From: a virus
Lineage: Duplodnaviria; Heunggongvirae; Uroviricota; Caudoviricetes
DNA length: 28,909 nt
Virus record (IMG/VR): IMGVR_UViG_638341082_000005
Location: 1-28,909 of that record
Strand: one strand, 5' to 3'
A program made the translations under genes and the position numbers. Positions 3,065-12,395 of the stretch are shown piece after piece. The notes under the pieces are model-generated. The model searched no databases, was not told the origin of the DNA, and saw only the letters and a list, made by a program, of their open reading frames with translations. The first letter of the stretch is position 1. Each line of letters starts with the position of its first letter.

Positions 3065-3597
3065 GCGCATTTGCGTAACTCCGATAACTCGTTAAAACGT
3101 TCCATAAACATCCCATAGGCATGGCCTGGCGACAGTGGAATAACTTTGAACATCTCTGTTGCCGGGATACCTTCCAGTACAGGCCAGAAAGAGCCATCAT
3201 CAAGCCCGAGATCGCGGCGTTCGGTTGCCAGCATGATGAGATCGGCATATTTCACGGGCGTGCTCATAACCGGGGGTAACCCGTATTTCTCACGGATTAC
3301 GGCGTCTATTTTTTCTTCCATCCGTTTATAGTCAGGAAGAAGGCGTTTCAGTGGCGCGGGGATGTCCTGGCAATACGCTTCTGTTGCATCATGCATTAAT
3401 GCTTCAAAAGCAAATTCCTGCGGTACCAGCTGGCTGCAAAGCACCGCATGTTGGGCGACGCTGTAGAAATGTGAAAGATGTCCTGCAAAGCGACAGATAT
3501 TTGAAAGAGAAACCGCGATATCGTTAATAACGATGTCGTCTTTATTTATCCTGTCATAATAAAAATGCTTCCCGGAAAAAGTTTTAATAAATGACAT
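3061..3597 (-). CDS. HD-domain phosphohydrolase (YfdR-like 5'-deoxynucleotidase)
   Basis: HD motif in LMHDATEAY plus upstream His (AQHAVL); start at ATG (MSFIKTF) with GGAGA 7 nt upstream; the ORF-track start at 3624 is a GTG without an RBS. Confidence 0.7.
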   Translation of the reverse strand: MSFIKTFSGKHFYYDRINKDDIVINDIAVSLSNICRFAGHLSHFYSVAQHAVLCSQLVPQEFAFEALMHDATEAYCQDIPAPLKRLLPDYKRMEEKIDAVIREKYGLPPVMSTPVKYADLIMLATERRDLGLDDGSFWPVLEGIPATEMFKVIPLSPGHAYGMFMERFNELSELRKCA

Positions 3598-3690
3598 TTT
3601 GTTCTCCACGTATATGCGCTGCACCGCGCTGAATTCTGGTAAAAGGAAGCCCTCACCATCCGGCGATTATTGAGTTAATTACGTTTCCAT

Positions 3691-3712
3691 AAATGCCCCC
3701 GCAGGGGCATTT
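3691..3712 (-). other. intercistronic perfect stem-loop, no U-tract
   Basis: AAATGCCCC-CGCA-GGGGCATTT, 9-bp stem, between the YfdQ-like stop and the HD gene start; probably an mRNA processing or stability element rather than a terminator. Confidence 0.4.
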
Positions 3713-3724
3713 GCAGTAATGAAA

Positions 3725-4549
3725 TCAGGCGGTGAAAGTACCAATAAAGGTTTCTACTTTGCTGTCTTTGAATTTCTCAACAAGCAGATCACGAAATTCG
3801 TTAGCCATTTCTTCCTGCACTGCTTCCAGCTGAATAATGCGCAGAACCAGTACAGGACGATCGCCAGTGATAATGCTGAGGCGTAATTTAAATGGACGTT
3901 CTTTCAGACCTTCAAACGGAACGCATTTAAATTCAAATGCCACTGGCATAATATCTTTGGTCTTCGCTTCGACAGACTCCATCAGGGAGCGTTTGCCGCT
4001 GAAGTCATTATCTTCAAAATCAGCGGTCTGGTTTGCTTCAATCGTGATTTTACGGACAGCCGCAGCCGCTTTTGTTGCCTGAATAGCGTCACCATTAGCA
4101 TCAAAGCCCACAAGGTAGTCGGCCCAGTCTTCAATCCATTCTGCCAGTGACTTCTGGGAGTTACGCTCGCCATTAACAGACAACAGAGCAGAGAACGGTG
4201 CTGTCTTTTTCAGTTTGAGAGTGGCGGTGTTATCTGCGTGACCTGGTTCATCAATAGTACCCAGGTTAATCACACTGACGGCTCGCATATTATCGGCATC
4301 GATAAAGCAGCGGGTGCCTTCATCTGCAAGATCTTTAGAATAACGGGTAAAGTCATCGATGCTGGCAGTGGAAAGCGCACCACGGAAACGGAAGCGATTT
4401 AAATTAAATTTCTCCAGATCATGAATGCGGAAATTCTCAGGCAATGCCACAGCATCGGCACCAATCTTACTGATAATTTCATTAACACCCTGAGCAGAAA
4501 TAAGGGCATGGATTTGATTAATTGCGGTTGCGTCTAAGTTCTGAGACAT
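3725..4549 (-). CDS. YfdQ-family (DUF2303) prophage protein
   Basis: 274-aa translation resembles YfdQ of prophage CPS-53; same relative position (YfdP-Q-R-S) as in that element. Confidence 0.65.
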
Positions 4550-4614
4550 AATAAGTCCTCACTATATAAAGATATTCAGTGATGAGATAAATAATCGGTT
4601 AATTAAGAACGATA

Positions 4615-4977
4615 TTAATGACCTGCTGCGCGGAGTTTTCCGTCAGGTTCACCGGCAAGAGTCAGTAATTGTCCCTGGTCTTCCTGCAGAATAGTCAGGC
4701 GACCACCGCGATTGACATACATCGGCGTTTCGGTGGTGTCTTCTTCGGAAATTTTCCCGCGGTTAGTCGGGCGAACATATGAGAGTTTGTGTTTGATTTT
4801 CACACGGTTCTCATCAAATGGTTCGATTTCCAGGTTGAGCGAGACCTTACCTTTGGTTTTCGTGTTCATCACACCGGAAGCGACTTCACTGAGAACAGCG
4901 CCGATTTTGGTTTCAAATACGCCGCCGTCCAGCTCCCCGATAAATGCCTGCACATCAGTACTGCGTTCGCTAGCCAT
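4615..4977 (-). CDS. hypothetical protein (YfdP-position), first gene of the early-left operon
   Basis: start placed at ATG 4977 (MASERSTDVQ...) with GAGGAG 7 nt upstream; the longer ORF-track start at 5208 runs into a structured region with no RBS. Confidence 0.5.
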   Translation of the reverse strand: MASERSTDVQAFIGELDGGVFETKIGAVLSEVASGVMNTKTKGKVSLNLEIEPFDENRVKIKHKLSYVRPTNRGKISEEDTTETPMYVNRGGRLTILQEDQGQLLTLAGEPDGKLRAAGH

Positions 4978-5027
4978 TTTGCTGCTCCTCATCATATCGA
5001 CCCTGCAAGGTCGGTTGGTTTCTCCAC

Positions 5028-5112
5028 AAAACAGAGAAGAACACCTGCGGTGACTGCCGCCCGGATGGATTGGGTTATGAGCCCGTCGTCCGGTGATGCT
5101 CTTCTCTGTTTT
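5028..5112 (-). promoter_or_regulatory. long hairpin in the 5' UTR of the first early-left gene
   Basis: AAAACAGAGAAGAACA (5028-5043) pairs with TGCTCTTCTCTGTTTT (5097-5112), one mismatch, about 53-nt loop; lies between the tL-like terminator and the RBS at 4985-4990. Confidence 0.4.
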
Positions 5113-5160
5113 GTAAAAAGAGCGGTACCAGCCGGAAGCAAGTGTACAAACTGGTACCGC
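5113..5160 (-). terminator. intrinsic terminator inside the early-left leader (tL-like)
   Basis: 10-bp GC-rich inverted repeat GCGGTACCAG / CTGGTACCGC followed on the minus strand by UCUUUUUACAAAA. Confidence 0.5.
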
Positions 5161-5260
5161 CAAAGCAGTGGCTGTTGTGGTGGGGTTGTCACTCAGGCGT
5201 ATGGTCAACCTGACAATCCGGTGTCCTCAACGGGGAAAGAGTAACCCCGCCATACTTACC

Positions 5261-5299
5261 GCCGCGCCATTTCGCGGATTACCACAACGCTGAGAGCAC
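5261..5299 (-). promoter_or_regulatory. candidate nut-like element (boxA-like + boxB-like hairpin)
   Basis: minus strand reads GTGCTCTCAGCG (boxA-like, cf. lambda CGCTCTTA), then about 11 nt, then hairpin CCGCG-AAATGG-CGCGG; no N-like ORF seen, so speculative. Confidence 0.25.
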
Positions 5300-5571
5300 T
5301 TAGCCAGTTACGGCACCACACTTTGTCGCGGTTCCATAAATGCCCTCATCGTTGCACCCTGGTCTCTTCCCAGGCGTCAAACCGGATCGCCACGCTGGTT
5401 AGGCGTCTTATCAGCATCCTCATTGACTTGCACATTCCGGCTACCTGGTTTGTTTGCCCGAGCAAGGAGTGGATTGTCCCCTTTAACGTCCCCAGACCGC
5501 TAACGACGCATGTGCCATACGCCGTGTTACAACCAAATTTTGTTAGTACCTTGTTTGTAGGTCTGGAGAGA

Positions 5572-5600
5572 AAGATAAAATGAAGTTGCGCATTATGCAA
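5572..5600 (-). promoter_or_regulatory. candidate pL promoter overlapping an operator-like palindrome
   Basis: minus strand TTGCAT (-35), 17 nt, TATCTT (-10); overlaps TTGCGCATTATGCAA (5586-5600); a second palindrome TTGCGAGATAAGCAA at 5609-5623. Confidence 0.4.
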
Positions 5601-5637
5601 GTGTTTTATTGCGAGATAAGCAATTTGGTGGGTAATG

Positions 5638-5657
5638 AAAAGCCACCTTCTGGTGGC
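5638..5657 (-). terminator. terminator downstream of the repressor gene
   Basis: GCCACC-TTCT-GGTGGC hairpin followed by a short U-run on the minus strand, 23 nt past the repressor stop. Confidence 0.45.
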
Positions 5658-5679
5658 TAATTGATGTTGAGGTAGGGGG

Positions 5680-6372
5680 TTAATTGTGTCGCTTAAGGGT
5701 CTGTGACTGACTGATTAAGACCTTTCCAAAGACCATAAACCGGTGTTCGTTTTCGCTGGTAATTCCCCATTCGCGGTAAATCTGATTATCAGAAATTACC
5801 AGCAGTTTATCAGGTATCATTTGCAGTCGTTTGACGTAAATTTTATCATCAAAACCAAATACATATATACCATCCCCATCAAACTGATTGATACTGATAT
5901 CAACGAAGATGAGATCTCCTGGCTCAATGGTTGGACACATACTGTCCCCACGAACGTTGATAACTTTAATGTGATTTGCTGGTCGTCCACCAAACATCGA
6001 TACAGCATTATCAGTTCTGTATTCAATGGCATGAATCACATCAATGACATCACCGCCCTGGATAAGGCCATTTCCCGCACTGGCACTGACATCCAGCATT
6101 TCAATACGGAATACATCCTTCACCTGCGCAACATCCTCACTAATACTGTTTTTACATACAGTATTACTTTTGAGGTCTGAGGTAAAGAGATCAGCAATAT
6201 CAACACCTAAGCTCCTGGCAATATTACTCAGGGCTTGTTCAGTGAATTGTTTCTGCTTACCTGTTTCGAGGCGCGAGATATTCGCCGCATCCACTCCTAT
6301 TGCTTCAGCGAGATCGGCGATTTTCATGTTCTTCGCCTGGCGAAGTTGTCTGACTCGATTTCCTATGTTCAT
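5680..6372 (-). CDS. CI-type prophage repressor (HTH + S24 LexA-like peptidase)
   Basis: N-terminal HTH (MKIADLAEAIGVDAANISRLETGKQ), Ala-Gly cleavage site (SASAGNG), Ser nucleophile in GDSMCPT and Lys in KRLQ; divergent from the Cro-like gene. Confidence 0.85.
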   Translation of the reverse strand: MNIGNRVRQLRQAKNMKIADLAEAIGVDAANISRLETGKQKQFTEQALSNIARSLGVDIADLFTSDLKSNTVCKNSISEDVAQVKDVFRIEMLDVSASAGNGLIQGGDVIDVIHAIEYRTDNAVSMFGGRPANHIKVINVRGDSMCPTIEPGDLIFVDISINQFDGDGIYVFGFDDKIYVKRLQMIPDKLLVISDNQIYREWGITSENEHRFMVFGKVLISQSQTLKRHN

Positions 6373-6469
6373 GCGTTTATTACATTTCTTTATTGCGCGT
6401 TAAGCAAATCAACTTGCGCAAAATATTTGCGTGAAATAATATGCTCATCACGCAATATGTGGAGGTTAT
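6373..6469. promoter_or_regulatory. oR/pR-pRM-like divergent control region
   Basis: operator-like palindrome TTGCGCGTTAAGCAA (6393-6407) of the same form as the two at 5586-5623; candidate pR TTGCGC (6414-6419), 17 nt, TAATAT (6437-6442); inverted repeat TTGCGTGA...TCACGCAA (6427-6455); GGAGG RBS before the Cro-like ATG. Confidence 0.5.
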
Positions 6470-6730
6470 ATGCAATCACCATTACGGAATGTGCGTAAGG
6501 CGCACGGATTTACTTTGCAGCATGTTGCTGCGGGCGTTCAGGTCAATCCAGCGACGCTGAGTCGTATTGAAAGACTGGAACAAATTCCATCTATCGATCT
6601 TGCAGAACGTCTGGCCAATTTTTTTAAGGGTGAAATCAGCGAAATGCAGATTCTTTATCCGGCACGTTTTCAATCTAGCCAAAACCAGAATGGGTTTAAA
6701 CCACAGGAACAGGAGGTAAGCCGTGGGTAA
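6470..6730 (+). CDS. Cro-like HTH (XRE-family) regulator
   Basis: 86-aa protein with HTH (FTLQHVAAGVQVNPATLSRIER), divergent from the repressor, GGAGG RBS. Confidence 0.7.
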   Translation: MQSPLRNVRKAHGFTLQHVAAGVQVNPATLSRIERLEQIPSIDLAERLANFFKGEISEMQILYPARFQSSQNQNGFKPQEQEVSRG

Positions 6731-7274
6731 GCATCATTGGAAAGTGGAAAAACAACCTGAGTGGTACGTGAAAGCTGTCAGAAAAACTATCGCGGCATTG
6801 CCTGGGGGTTACGCTGAAGCTGCTGACTGGCTGGATGTAACAGAGAACGCTTTATTCAACCGCCTTCGTGCAGATGGCGATCAGATTTTCCCGCTGGGAT
6901 GGGCAATGGTTTTACAGCGCGCGGCTGGCACTCACTACATTGCGGATGCTGTCGCACAGTCTGCTGGTGGGGTGTTCGTATCGCTTCCTGAAATTGAGGA
7001 AGTAGAGAACGCCGATATAAACCAGCGCCTGCTGGAAGTCATCGAACAGATCGGGAATTACTCAAAGCAGATTCGTTCGGCAATCGAAGATGGGGTCGTG
7101 GAGCCACACGAGCAGACAGCAATTAATGATGAGTTGTATCTGTCAATTTCGAAGCTCCAGGAGCATGCAGCACTGGTCTACAAAATCTTCTGCGCTCCAG
7201 AAAAGAGTGACGCCCGCGAGTGTGCAGCTCCGGGCGTCGTGGCGTTTTGTGTCTGTGGAGAAACTAACGCATGA
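6723..7274 (+). CDS. CII-like regulator (CP76-type), putative
   Basis: GTG start after AGGAGG; position immediately after Cro; resembles CP76-type CII proteins from memory. Confidence 0.45.
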   Translation: MGKHHWKVEKQPEWYVKAVRKTIAALPGGYAEAADWLDVTENALFNRLRADGDQIFPLGWAMVLQRAAGTHYIADAVAQSAGGVFVSLPEIEEVENADINQRLLEVIEQIGNYSKQIRSAIEDGVVEPHEQTAINDELYLSISKLQEHAALVYKIFCAPEKSDARECAAPGVVAFCVCGETNA

Positions 7275-7875
7275 ACAGTTTAACGGCAAATAACCGTTTG
7301 TCGCAACAGCTGGTGGTCAGTGTCGCTGAACACCTGTTGTTACGGTATGAATGCAGATTACCAAATCACCTGGCTGTAAGTAACCACAGAGAACTTTACC
7401 TGACTGTGGGGGGCGAGTTGTGCAGGAACTTAACCGCTGGTTTCGTGACGGAAGAGGGCTTTATGTCCATGTTATTCGTTGGGAGCCAGAAACACAGCGC
7501 GTTATCTATCTTCGCAAAGACTACCCGCATGAGTGCTTTAGTCCTTTGTGGAAATTCAGGCATGATTTTGTTGAGTGTGAAGGACCACCAGCACATTGAT
7601 TCTGCCATTCCGGGACGTTACACTGTTCAGGCACCTTATAAAGCGGGTGCCGGGCGTGGAAACCCGGAATTCACCAAAGCGCACAACCGCGCTCTTGCGG
7701 TTTTTTTGTGTAATGAGCAGCATTACGCCCAAATTATGGTGGGGCGTGCAGGGCCAACTTCGGTTGGGCCGGGTTCTTTGGTGACCGGTATTTCCACCCC
7801 TGTACGTCTCACCACCAATAAGGTCGTGGAAAGCCTTGGTGGTGAGTTATTAAAAATCACCAAAGAGGCTGCCAT
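7271..7875 (+). other. ambiguous segment: frame is open but no recognisable protein; contains terminator-like and tetraloop hairpins
   Basis: frame 2 is open from ATG 7271 into the Rha gene; an alternative 59-codon frame (GTG 7420 to TGA 7599) looks more protein-like; AACCGC-GCTCTT-GCGGTT + TTTTTTT at 7685-7709; UUCG-loop hairpin near 7751-7770; 11-bp inverted repeat CTCACCACCAA/TTGGTGGTGAG at 7808-7846. Confidence 0.3.
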
Positions 7876-8422
7876 CATGGCTACGATCCCAACCCTCACT
7901 CAACCTGAAATTGCCATCGTTGATGGTCAGGCTGTTACTTCATCCCTGGCTGTTGCCAACTTCTTCTCCAAACGTCATGACGATGTACTGAAAAAGATCC
8001 GCACGCTTGAATGCTCTGCATCATTCACTGCCCGCAATTTTTCGGTGAGTGATTACACCGATTGCACAGGCCGCAAACTACCTTGCTATCAAATAACCCG
8101 CGACGGCTTTGCGTTTCTTGCTATGGGGTTCACGGGTAAACGTGCTGCCCAGTTCAAAGAGGCATACATCAATGCCTTTAACCAGATGGAGAAACAGCTT
8201 TCAAATCCCTCTGTACTGAGCGACGTTGCACATAACGCCAGCGTTCTCTATTCCTACATTTCATCAATTCATCAGGTCTGGCTGCAGCAGCTTTATCCTA
8301 TGTTGGCAAAAGCCGAATCTCCGCTGGCTGTTAGCTTGTATGACTATATTAATGATGCTTCGGCACTGGCCTGCCTCATAAATTTGTCGCTGAACCCTTC
8401 AGAGGTAAGGGGGCGCAAATGA
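7876..8422 (+). CDS. Rha-family phage regulatory protein (N-terminus may extend to 7271)
   Basis: Rha domain begins at MATIPTLTQPEIAIVDGQAVTSSLAVANFFSKRHDDVLKKIR; AGAGG RBS upstream of ATG 7876; Rha domains normally sit at the extreme N-terminus. Confidence 0.55.
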
Positions 8423-11330: not shown

Positions 11331-12395
11331 ATGAATAATCTGATGGTCATTGATGGTATTGAAGTTCGTCGTGATGCTTATGGGCGTTACAGCCTGAACG
11401 ATCTGCATCGCGCAGCAGTAGCATCTGGTGCAAATGCCAGAACCAAGGAGCCAGGAAAGTTTCTTTCCAGCCAACAAACTGTTGAGCTTGTTCATGAATT
11501 GACCAACACCCAGAATTTGGGTGTTGACCCGGTGAGTGTGATTCATGGGGGAAATGAACGGGGAACGTATGTCTGCAAGGAACTGGTGTATGCCTATGCA
11601 ATGTGGATCAGCCCGTCATTCCATCTGAAGGTGATCCGTACTTTCGACATGGTAACCAGCGCACCGGAAAAATTATCCGGACAGGCTGCTGACAAGATGC
11701 AGGCTGGTGTGATTCTGCTGGACTTTATGCGCCGGGAATTAAACCTGTCTAACTCTTCAGTGCTTGGTGCCTGTCAGAAACTCCAGGAGGCTGTTGGCTT
11801 ACCGAATCTGGCACCGCGCTATGCCATTGATGCTCCTGCTGACGCGCCTGATGGCTCAAGTCGTCCTACGCTGTCGCTGAGTGCACTGCTGAAACAGTAT
11901 GGTAACCGCGTTGCTTCATCCGCGATATCGCAGTCGGCGTCACAGGTTGCCCGTGAGACAAAGGTACGCCGGAAACTGGTAAAGGAAAGGGCCAGGCTGA
12001 AAAGGGCCACGGTCAAAAATCCGCAGGCCAGAATCAAAGTTAACCGGGGGGATTTGCCCGTAATCAAGCTGGGTAATGCGCGGGTTGTCCTGTCCCGCCG
12101 CAGGCGTCGTAAAAAAGGGCAGCGTTCATCCCTGAAAGGTGGCGGCAGCGTGCTTGTGGTGGGTAACCGTCGTATTCCCGGCGCGTTTATTCAGCAACTG
12201 AAAAATGGCCGGTGGCATGTCATGCAGCGTGTGGCCGGGAAAAACCGTTACCCCATTGATGTGGTGAAAATCCCGATGGCGGTGCCGCTGACCACGGCGT
12301 TTAAACAGAATATTGAGCGGATACGGCGTGAGCGTCTTCCGAAAGAGCTGGGCTATGCGCTGCAGCATCAACTGAGAATGGTAATAAAGCGATGA
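11331..12395 (+). CDS. chimeric ORF: KilA-N domain fused in frame to the C-terminal ~160 aa of lambda head completion protein Z
   Basis: N-terminus has the KilA-N domain (MVIDGIEVRRDAYGRYSLNDLHRAA...YAMWISPSFHLKVIRTFD); from about residue 195 (NRVASSAISQSASQVARETKVRR... to ...LRMVIKR) it matches lambda gpZ and is followed by U and V. Confidence 0.7.
   Translation: MNNLMVIDGIEVRRDAYGRYSLNDLHRAAVASGANARTKEPGKFLSSQQTVELVHELTNTQNLGVDPVSVIHGGNERGTYVCKELVYAYAMWISPSFHLKVIRTFDMVTSAPEKLSGQAADKMQAGVILLDFMRRELNLSNSSVLGACQKLQEAVGLPNLAPRYAIDAPADAPDGSSRPTLSLSALLKQYGNRVASSAISQSASQVARETKVRRKLVKERARLKRATVKNPQARIKVNRGDLPVIKLGNARVVLSRRRRRKKGQRSSLKGGGSVLVVGNRRIPGAFIQQLKNGRWHVMQRVAGKNRYPIDVVKIPMAVPLTTAFKQNIERIRRERLPKELGYALQHQLRMVIKR

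Follow-up and report, generated by a model that had tools for sequence, protein, structure and literature searches.

How is the early-left operon of a lambdoid prophage expressed when a terminator-like hairpin lies between its promoter and its first gene, and no N-like gene can be found? The question is raised by a leader of about 600 nucleotides (nt) in the window analysed here, the 28,909-nt viral record IMGVR_UViG_638341082_000005 of IMG/VR (Caudoviricetes), which belongs to a lambdoid prophage. The leader spans positions 4979-5640 on the minus strand, between a gene for a cI-type repressor and a yfdP-like gene. The original prediction, made from the letters alone, described it as hairpin-dense and free of open reading frames (ORFs), with an internal terminator and a nut-like boxA/boxB, and proposed that it worked through an antiterminating RNA like put of phage HK022, through host factors or as the source of a small RNA (sRNA). 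We found that, on the minus strand, the leader is a mosaic of four conserved RNA modules, denoted here as A to D. The description that suits it best is that of a non-coding early leader of the dicBF type, in which A is a new pseudoknotted RNA, B an apparently tRNA-derived element, C a presumably leaky terminator of the DicF type and D a long hairpin before the first gene. In our reading, to which we give a probability of roughly 0.55 for the full course of events set out below, it would form the untranslated 5' leader of what is transcribed from pL in a prophage of the SfV/mEp460/Stx2c type, built from exchangeable RNA modules and devoid of an N/nut device. The elements of the leader are as follows.

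5538-5355, minus strand: module A, a structured RNA of about 170 nt (covariance-model match at 5526-5355, 136.9 bits, E = 1e-45).
5354-5286, minus strand: linker and junction, the latter being GUGCUCUCAGCGUU at 5299-5286, which contains the "boxA" of the original prediction.
5298-5291, minus strand: the boxA-like octamer UGCUCUCA.
5288-5174, minus strand: module B, a cloverleaf-like cassette of three arms and a closing stem of 8 bp (GUUGUGGU/ACCACAAC).
5161-5115, minus strand: module C, a DicF-type hairpin (GGCGGUACCAGU...GCUGGUACCGCU) followed by UCUUUUU, an intrinsic terminator or the 3' end of an sRNA.
5114-5026, minus strand: module D, a 22-bp stem that closes a three-way junction and abuts the U-run of module C.

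The claim of an untranslated and structured early-left leader was borne out by the ORF, folding and covariation results alike. No credible ORF exists in 4979-5640: the mechanical minus-strand ORFs, one of 84 aa with a TTG start (5600-5346) and one of 66 aa with a GTG start (5192-4992), overlie RNA helices that show compensatory changes, and the minus-strand leader ORFs tested had no match in Pfam or PHROG. The density of hairpins also held when the fold was predicted, the 662 nt of the minus strand reaching -247.8 kcal/mol against -208.3 +/- 8.7 for shuffled versions (z = -4.6). Since the plus strand folds well too (z = -4.2), the strand was taken from the G.U pairs. At gathering thresholds, the Rfam models detected only IsrK and C4 in the window, both outside the leader; at E <= 10, the search of 4500-5800 with these covariance models returned only noise (mir-9412 and SNORD31), and ARAGORN called no tRNA or tmRNA in the window. 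Across the region the leader is 100% identical to those of the Escherichia phages PhiR40_1 (PV340560) and PhiR55_1, 96-99% identical over most of its length to those of phage cdtI and of Stx2c/Stx2a-converting phages, and about 90-92% identical to those of mEp460 and phiSTEC1575-Stx2k. Against phage genomes in general, BLAST breaks it up into segments with separate sets of relatives. The leader region is functional RNA, and covariation strongly supports its first module.

Module A is a new pseudoknotted RNA with four helices and at least one pseudoknot. Helix P1 is a hairpin, CGGCG/CGUCG in the window and CGGCR/YGYCG in the family as a whole, with the invariant loop UAUGGCACAUG; it is accompanied by helices P2, P4 (with a UCACCA loop) and P5 (with a GAAGAGA loop). 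In the pseudoknot PK2, the loop of P4 pairs with a downstream GGUG; in the window this pairing reads AACC/GGUU, a compensated change. A further possible pseudoknot, PK1, would join GCACAU to AUGUGC. In a first set of 45 sequences below 93% identity, 98% of the cells were paired and 12 pairs showed double changes, compared with 24-51% of cells paired in controls with slid partners. In a second test, on 75 distinct sequences obtained from another seed and aligned to a covariance model of the module (R2), 99.1% of cells were paired, 13 pairs covaried and 167 cells showed double changes; none of 500 shuffles reached the observed value on any of five measures. Across these 75 sequences PK2 covaries, with CG in 72 and AU in three. 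The many G.U pairs indicate that the RNA belongs to the minus strand, the direction of pL, and its 5' flank (5538-5527) is common to the window and phage P1.

Module A is present in 1833 of 5426 complete E. coli genomes (34%), and PGAP had annotated nothing over it in 2113 E. coli records. It also occurs in Klebsiella, Citrobacter, Enterobacter, Kosakonia, Phytobacter, Kluyvera, Pseudescherichia, Pseudocitrobacter, Scandinavium and Ca. Erwinia dacicola, and a scan of IMG/VR with an invariant 19-mer recovered at least 120 contigs with 107 unique cores. It was seen, in addition, in two metagenome-assembled genomes labelled as a Pseudanabaenaceae cyanobacterium and a member of the Bacillota (L238 and L250), most likely enterobacterial phage contigs that were mis-binned. 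The window holds exactly one copy according to both nhmmer and the covariance model run with filters off, so that neither search revealed a second copy that might serve as a putR analogue. One IMG/VR contig (L028) carries two copies; every other locus examined has one.

The contexts of module A fall into three kinds: a tRNA-Arg(UCU) gene lies about 65 nt downstream, a tRNA-Ile2(CAU) gene lies immediately upstream, or, in lambdoid contigs, there is no tRNA gene. The first kind is represented by phiV10, TL-2011b and O157 typing phage 9, where an element 82% identical to that of the window is found directly upstream of tRNA-Arg on the same strand, and by SPN1S, where a match stands directly before tRNA-Arg. 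The second is that of phage P1, whose copy (78% identity) begins 2 nt after tRNA-Ile in the ban operon and runs in the direction of ban. As for the third, in about 17 lambdoid contigs with different repressors, module A begins 110-170 nt past the stop codon of the cI-like gene, on the same strand, while cro- and cII-like genes diverge on the other side of that gene. This position makes it the first element of the early-left transcript. A sigma-70-like promoter that fits 9 or more of the 12 consensus positions lies upstream, no further than 160 nt away, in 72 of 133 distinct contexts; its -10 element is 7-120 nt from helix P1, and these distances cluster at 7-8, 30-36, 48-55 and 90 nt. A strong terminator was present within 900 nt in 87 of 147 contexts, a count made without a matched background control; the notion that a terminator always follows module A was rejected, none of that strength being found within this distance in the other 60. 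In phiV10 the order is a TTGACA-17-TACCTT promoter, module A, the junction GUGCUCUCAGCGUU, tRNA-Arg, a DicF-shaped terminator (GGCGG..CCGCC-UUUUU), a second terminator and a gene. The Pas sRNAs, AgvB and AsxR were considered as relatives of the leader RNAs and discarded: they are located in late regions and are unrelated.

The junction GUGCUCU(N3-4)CGUU/GUGG follows module A in 94 of 154 unique contexts, and what lies downstream of it varies: tRNA-Arg, module B or another cassette. In phiV10, where Rfam places the tRNA-Arg at 2242-2315 of the locus, the acceptor stem starts at GUGG right after CGUU, and module B of the window has the same CGUU/GUGG junction. An RNase P-type cleavage is predicted between U5286 and G5285. 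The octamer that had been taken for the boxA of a nut site is part of this conserved 14-nt leader, GUGCUCU..CGUU, which precedes a tRNA in phiV10 and module B here, and octamers of its class occur at chance frequency in the window (seven found, 7.2 expected). The 5-bp hairpin reported to follow it is real (CCGCG-AAAUGG-CGCGG, 5277-5262), but with its 6-nt loop it is arm 1 of module B and not a boxB.

The minimum-free-energy fold of module B is a cloverleaf. Among its homologs 94.5% of cells are paired, against 34-65% in slid controls, the G.U pairs again indicate the minus strand, and arm 2 has been rebuilt from phage to phage (CGGGG/CCCCG, CUGGG/CCCAG, CCAGGUG/CACCUG). By eye, the inner third arm, CAGG-UUGACC..-CCUG, resembles the T arm of tRNA-Arg, GCAGG-UUCGAAU-CCUGC. 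Neither ARAGORN nor the Rfam tRNA model recognizes a tRNA in module B; yet it occupies the position and follows the leader of a real one, and it has the closing stem and three arms of a cloverleaf, so that it is apparently a tRNA-derived cassette. Its sequence shares 89% identity with the 123 nt that come directly before dicF in the Qin prophage of K-12, 75% with the "dicF-like region" of phage P1, and 85-89% with elements of PPompW and Actinobacillus phages that lie between ydfC-/dicA-like genes and dicB or kil. In mEp460, a different insert is found within the same closing stem (GUUGUGGUGA/UCACCACAAC). The Actinobacillus pleuropneumoniae phage vB_Apl-pPE4 carries its copy (1995-2117 of the locus, 85% identity) between a DicA-like repressor gene and kil, followed by a DicF-type hairpin; this occurrence in a phage of the Pasteurellaceae points to spread across bacterial families.

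The GC-rich terminator with a U-run that had been placed at 5113-5160 was confirmed as module C, with a 13-bp stem (5161-5121) followed by UCUUUUU and a folding energy of -21.2 kcal/mol (z = -3.3). Its setting closely recalls that of dicBF. Both leaders are long untranslated stretches inside a repressor-controlled early prophage operon, a conserved element of about 120 nt (module B) precedes the hairpin in both, and genes lie beyond the terminator in both. Module C holds the position of DicF, with a GGCGG..CCGCC hairpin, a U-run and a shared UUUGGCGGUAYCAGUUU. However, it lacks the 5' arm of DicF (UUUCUGGUGACG) and the ftsZ-pairing ACUCCG loop; the window leader starts directly at pL, with no ydfABC genes; and the covariance-model search did not find module A in Qin. 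The DicF family (RF00039) gave no match at E <= 10 in 4500-5800, compared with 76.7 bits for dicF of K-12. When module C was paired with the translation-initiation region of ftsZ, RNAduplex returned -25.0 kcal/mol, compared with -30.9 on average for shuffles, and the ACUCCG segment is absent. Targeting of ftsZ in the manner of DicF thus had no support, and module C is to be regarded as a DicF-type hairpin and terminator, possibly also as an sRNA with other targets.

The dicBF precedent also bears on the assumption that a terminator inside an early operon implies antitermination. There, dicF lies within "a long untranslated region" between ydfC and dicB; its RNA owes its 5' end to RNase E and its 3' end either to Rho-independent termination (53 nt) or to an RNase III cut of the read-through mRNA (72 nt), and terminated as well as read-through RNA arises from the operon although no antiterminator is known for it (PMC5069750). 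Since the arrangement is the same, the internal terminator would need no dedicated antiterminator, and SfII retains terminator C with no module A before it. Of the three guesses made originally, a leader-encoded sRNA fared best, in the sense that the terminator is the hairpin found at the place of DicF in an untranslated region of the dicBF type. A literature search on DicF in connection with tRNA-like elements or RNase P, and on the Stx2c phage 2851, found nothing useful.

Module D is the long hairpin that had been noticed before the first gene, then with a 14-bp stem and here with 22 bp closing a three-way junction. The segment 5116-4975 folds at -56.3 kcal/mol (z = -5.4), and the module is conserved in SfV, SfIV, SfII and ST64B upstream of yfdP-like genes. 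It is a possible target of RNase III, and we take this long duplex before the gene to recall the RNase III site of the lambda N leader.

The modules do not travel as a block. SfII has the same repressor, a shared pL-proximal block and modules C and D, and A and B are replaced there by about 800 nt with small ORFs (phrog_15476 and phrog_2605; 3296-4124 of the locus). ST64B has, between cI and the yfdP-like gene, an 815-nt leader free of ORFs and of module A (928-1742 of the locus), which contains a sub-threshold STnc100-like Rfam match (35 bits, E = 3e-5). The interval between cI and the yfdP-like gene thus appears as a swap site in SfII and ST64B. In ST64B, the non-coding RNA STnc1310 and two genes downstream of cI were reported to be highly expressed under peroxide and nitric-oxide shocks, when lytic genes are transcribed (PMC7067206); that STnc1310 is the STnc100-like element of this leader is our guess. 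In the ban operon of phage P1 (220-341 and 2501-2691 of the locus), both modules occur in the order opposite to that of the window: module B and a terminator-like hairpin, annotated as a "dicF-like region" (misc_feature) in which Rfam finds no DicF, come right after Pban, and module A lies about 2.3-2.4 kb downstream of Pban, between tRNA-Ile and ban. The arrangements of SfII, ST64B and phage P1 favour portable RNA cassettes over a fixed regulatory leader, and they indicate that terminator C can exist with no module A upstream.

The leader is flanked in the window by the following features.

5641-5658, minus strand: a terminator-like hairpin, AGCCACCAGAAGGUGGCU followed by UUUCAUU, directly 3' of the repressor gene; a putative terminator is also annotated in SfII.
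5586-5623: two operator-like palindromes, TTGCGCATTATGCAA and TTGCGAGATAAGCAA, candidate OL, which overlap the candidate pL.
5680-6372, minus strand: the gene for the cI-type repressor (HTH and Peptidase_S24 by Pfam).
6470-6730, plus strand: a cro-like HTH gene.
6723-7274, plus strand: the gene for CII (CP76).
5013-4998, minus strand: a small hairpin, CGACCUUGCAGGGUCG, followed by the Shine-Dalgarno sequence GAGGAG (4990-4985) and the AUG (4977-4975) of the first early-left gene.
4615-4977, minus strand: that gene, yfdP-like, 120 aa, phrog_204.
3725-4549, minus strand: a DUF2303/yfdQ-like gene, the next after the yfdP-like gene, with more early-left genes beyond.

Exact TTGCG-N6-GCAA palindromes are found at 5586-5600 and 5609-5623, and elsewhere in the window only in the cI/cro spacer (6393-6407) and at 8062-8076. 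As the palindromes upstream of the leader repeat the motif of the cI/cro spacer, OL and pL are plausibly located at about 5580-5630; the promoter listing for the window has no entry at the candidate pL, where the hexamers are weak.

Two other regions of the window deserve mention. Rfam places IsrK (67 bits) at 7631-7707 and the C4 antisense RNA (83.6 bits) at 7732-7819, both on the plus strand and both within a 383-aa ORF (7271-8422, plus strand) that is annotated as Rha or antirepressor in relatives; these two RNA genes are exactly what the Pfam match Phage_ASH (aa 117-213, nt 7619-7910) covers. The DNA either serves as coding sequence and RNA gene at once, or translated RNA genes account in part for the ORF call and for the Pfam family. 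C4 and IsrK resemble the leader RNAs in being phage-encoded structured RNAs of the immunity region, and the C4 precursor is a substrate of RNase P; they differ in showing no sequence or model similarity to them and in lying on the other strand, in a different operon. Further on, a 354-aa ORF (11331-12395, plus strand) combines the Pfam domains KilA-N and "minor tail protein Z" (GPZ), an unusual combination for a place just downstream of RusA, at which one would expect a regulator of late genes.

These elements can be integrated in the following model. Once the repressor leaves OL, RNA polymerase would transcribe module A first, then the conserved leader GUGCUCUCAGCGUU with the tRNA-derived cloverleaf of module B, and would next meet module C, presumably a leaky intrinsic terminator as in dicBF. 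RNase P would cut read-through transcripts at CGUU/GUGG and RNase E would do so downstream of B, perhaps with a further cut by RNase III at D, so that terminated and processed transcripts would yield discrete small RNAs A, B and C, and the read-through fraction would carry the yfdP/yfdQ-like early genes. Module A would be a portable RNA gene (an "RNA moron") placed right after the promoter and beside a tRNA or tRNA-like element, and it may bind a conserved host component, for which RNA polymerase is the leading candidate in view of the put-like first hairpin of the module. On present evidence we rank an autonomous processed RNA, carried as a portable cassette, slightly above a cis-acting antiterminator of the put type. 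More tentatively, and at odds that we would put clearly below even, module A may represent a new class of phage RNA, either a larger RNA polymerase-binding analogue of put, with a distinct structure, that controls elongation and termination independently of N, or a stable RNA, released by tRNA-processing enzymes, that acts in trans on a conserved host target, in either case as a portable cassette of lambdoid, P1-like and epsilon15-like phages across Enterobacteriaceae.

Several points weigh against the model. In the sequences collected with a seed outside PK1, both strands of that pseudoknot are essentially invariant and give it no covariation. Covariation in module B is modest (three pairs with double changes), and its folding energy alone is unexceptional (z = -1.1). 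The junction motif is missing from 60 of 154 contexts of module A, which makes the linkage to a tRNA-like element common and not universal. The pL promoter and the points at which its transcript starts and is processed all enter the model as predictions, as does how efficiently C terminates, and binding of a host factor by module A is a proposal, not a demonstrated mechanism. Finally, a promoter-proximal site and a put-like hairpin are no less suited to action in cis than to a released RNA that acts in trans.

The layout at first suggests the device of phage lambda: the map order is the same (repressor gene, OL/pL, leader, first early-left gene), a boxA-like octamer is followed by a hairpin, and a long duplex precedes the first gene. 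The absence of an N-like arginine-rich ORF, as stated in the original prediction, was upheld by Pfam scans and an arginine-rich-motif scan of the window, as well as by the annotations of the relatives mEp460, Stx2a_1447 and SfII. The nut-like boxA and boxB were not supported, the former being a tRNA-type 5' leader and the latter an arm of the larger cloverleaf. With no N-like gene found, and with a 6-nt AAAUGG loop instead of a GNRA-like pentaloop, a lambda-type N/nut device was not supported.

Antitermination by RNA is a more serious contender. In this explanation module A is a cis-acting, put-like processive antiterminator, the nascent RNA of which binds RNA polymerase and brings about read-through of the DicF-type and later terminators with no need for N; we consider it unlikely, although it survives better than the others. 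The put RNA itself counteracts termination through contact with the zinc-binding domain of the polymerase beta' subunit. In about 17 immunity types, module A stands just past the early-left promoter, where lambda has nutL/N and HK022, whose putL lies just downstream of PL (PMC9378689), has its antiterminator. Like putL, it is a structured RNA with invariant unpaired nucleotides in the early-left leader of a lambdoid phage in which no N gene was detected; it lies upstream of terminators in the window, in phiV10 and in the contexts counted above (phage P1, with a mid-operon copy, is the exception), and in some contexts helix P1 begins about 7 nt past the -10 element, close to the expected start. 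In sequence, HK022 putL (AUAGACGAACGGCGCGUCUUUAAACCAUGCGUCGG...) and the P1 hairpin of module A (ACGGCGUAUGGCACAUGCGUCG; ACGGCG-UAUGGCA-CAUGCGUCG) share ACGGCG and CAUGCGUCG, that is, stem I (CGGCG/CGUCG, with a G.U pair) and the CAUG that holds the essential U28 of put. The signature ACGGC[GC]N4-14CATG[GC]GTCG was confined to module A copies and HK022 putL in 2.8 Mb searched on both strands, although it was defined after seeing both sequences and its halves are coupled by base pairing; in module A, moreover, its CAU may be paired in PK1.

Against this stands, in the first place, the failure of the covariance models in both directions. The put model (R1), built from seven put sequences and scoring 97 bits for HK022 putL, 95 for HK639 and 57 for putR, found no match at E <= 10 in the window or in 19 module A loci, and the module A model (R2) found none in the put loci of HK022, HK639, phiEt88, CobraSix, S9-5 and PdC23. 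Membership in the put family was consequently rejected, so that of the put-like antitermination originally suggested only the mode of action is kept, as a candidate. Module A is also about 2.4 times the size of put (four helices and one or two pseudoknots in about 170 nt, against two stems in about 72 nt), and it is found in a single copy per phage, with none for the rightward operon, as well as mid-operon in phage P1 and beside tRNA genes. In phage P1 it comes about 2.3 kb past Pban, after the dicF-like terminator rather than before it; SfII retains terminator C and the downstream genes with no module A; and the 60 contexts devoid of a strong nearby terminator count against it as well.

A riboswitch-like or attenuator sensor, through which a ligand, a tRNA or a phage protein would determine how much transcription passes module C, is decidedly improbable. 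The complex pseudoknotted fold with invariant loops, its place in a 5' leader and the terminator found downstream in many contexts would suit it, but no expression platform overlaps module A, the first terminator is 41 to more than 700 nt away with unrelated modules between, the copy of phage P1 precedes ban with no terminator, and there is no relative in Rfam.

Still less likely is that UGCUCUCA is a functional boxA at which a complex comprising NusB, NusE, NusA and NusG, as on rrn operons, shields the untranslated leader from Rho and from terminators in the absence of N. A 600-nt untranslated leader would indeed be open to Rho, and GUGCUCU.. is kept after module A in 94 of 154 contexts. The octamer partially resembles the boxA consensus (YGCUCUUUA or CGCUCUUA), and 22 junction variants among the homologs read UGCUCUUU, the rrn boxA core, with which a role of Nus factors would be formally compatible. 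The relative mEp460 bears the name of the mEp collection, described as Nus-dependent in a 2025 paper on mEpimmI; the phage group of that paper differs, has an N-like Gp17, and mEp460 is not mentioned. However, the commonest junction form, GCUCUCAG, and the boxA core, GCUCUUUA, disagree at three positions out of eight, the octamer class is no more frequent than chance, the rightward operon has no comparable motif, and the motif is fixed 4-5 nt before the 5' end of a tRNA or of module B, a position by which its conservation is explained as that of a tRNA leader.

That the leader is decayed DNA with no present function, made of remnants of tRNA genes, ydf genes or morons, is scarcely tenable. Module B does resemble a degenerate tRNA missed by tRNA finders, and the region is mosaic, but the covariation largely refutes this explanation: compensatory substitutions affect at least 13 pairs at 99% pairing among the 75 distinct module A sequences, the hairpins of module B covary too, and invariant loops have been kept across P1, epsilon15-like and lambdoid phages and about a dozen genera.

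Least credible of all is that the leader encodes a small protein, be it an N analogue or the plus-strand "hypothetical proteins" of the databases, for, beyond the negative searches with the 84- and 66-aa ORFs and for an arginine-rich N-terminal motif, variable-length hairpins and indels between homologs would disrupt any reading frame and substitutions track RNA pairing. The annotated coding sequences in question are antisense to the RNAs: GenBank places mEp460_036 and mEp460_037 (3151-3294 and 3336-3704 of the mEp460 locus) directly over modules A-C, and PhiV10p04 (2248-2499 of the phiV10 locus) directly over tRNA-Arg and the two terminators. All three are probably spurious gene calls, and the same holds for several of the "hypothetical proteins" that cover the modules in databases.

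Large structured RNAs associated with tRNA genes are known from prophages (ROOL and GOLLD), and the stable RNAs "species 1/2" belong to the tRNA cluster of T4. Like them, module A is a structured non-coding RNA of phages or prophages that adjoins co-oriented tRNA genes and is probably released by tRNA-processing enzymes. It differs from ROOL and GOLLD in being much smaller, in its hosts (Enterobacteriaceae and not Firmicutes), in its usual location in an early-left leader and in having no match to any family of Rfam 15 even at E <= 10, a search that covers both provided that the library contains them.

Little DNA has been studied as closely as the prophages of E. coli, and yet 34% of complete E. 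coli genomes, as well as phage P1 and Stx2c/Stx2a phages, contain a pseudoknotted RNA of about 170 nt, supported by covariation, that has no Rfam family and no RefSeq annotation. The sequence that precedes dicF is a conserved tRNA-like cloverleaf at a place where other phages have a real tRNA, which suggests that the 5' end of DicF may be formed by RNase P and RNase E acting on a tRNA-like precursor. Were module A a released RNA, it would be an enterobacterial case of the unexplained link between phage tRNA genes and structured RNAs. If it is true that module A modifies RNA polymerase, antitermination by RNA alone, for which phages offer a single known system, would gain its second example, and the working of the early-left operon in a large lambdoid lineage that lacks N and includes Shiga-toxin phages would be explained.

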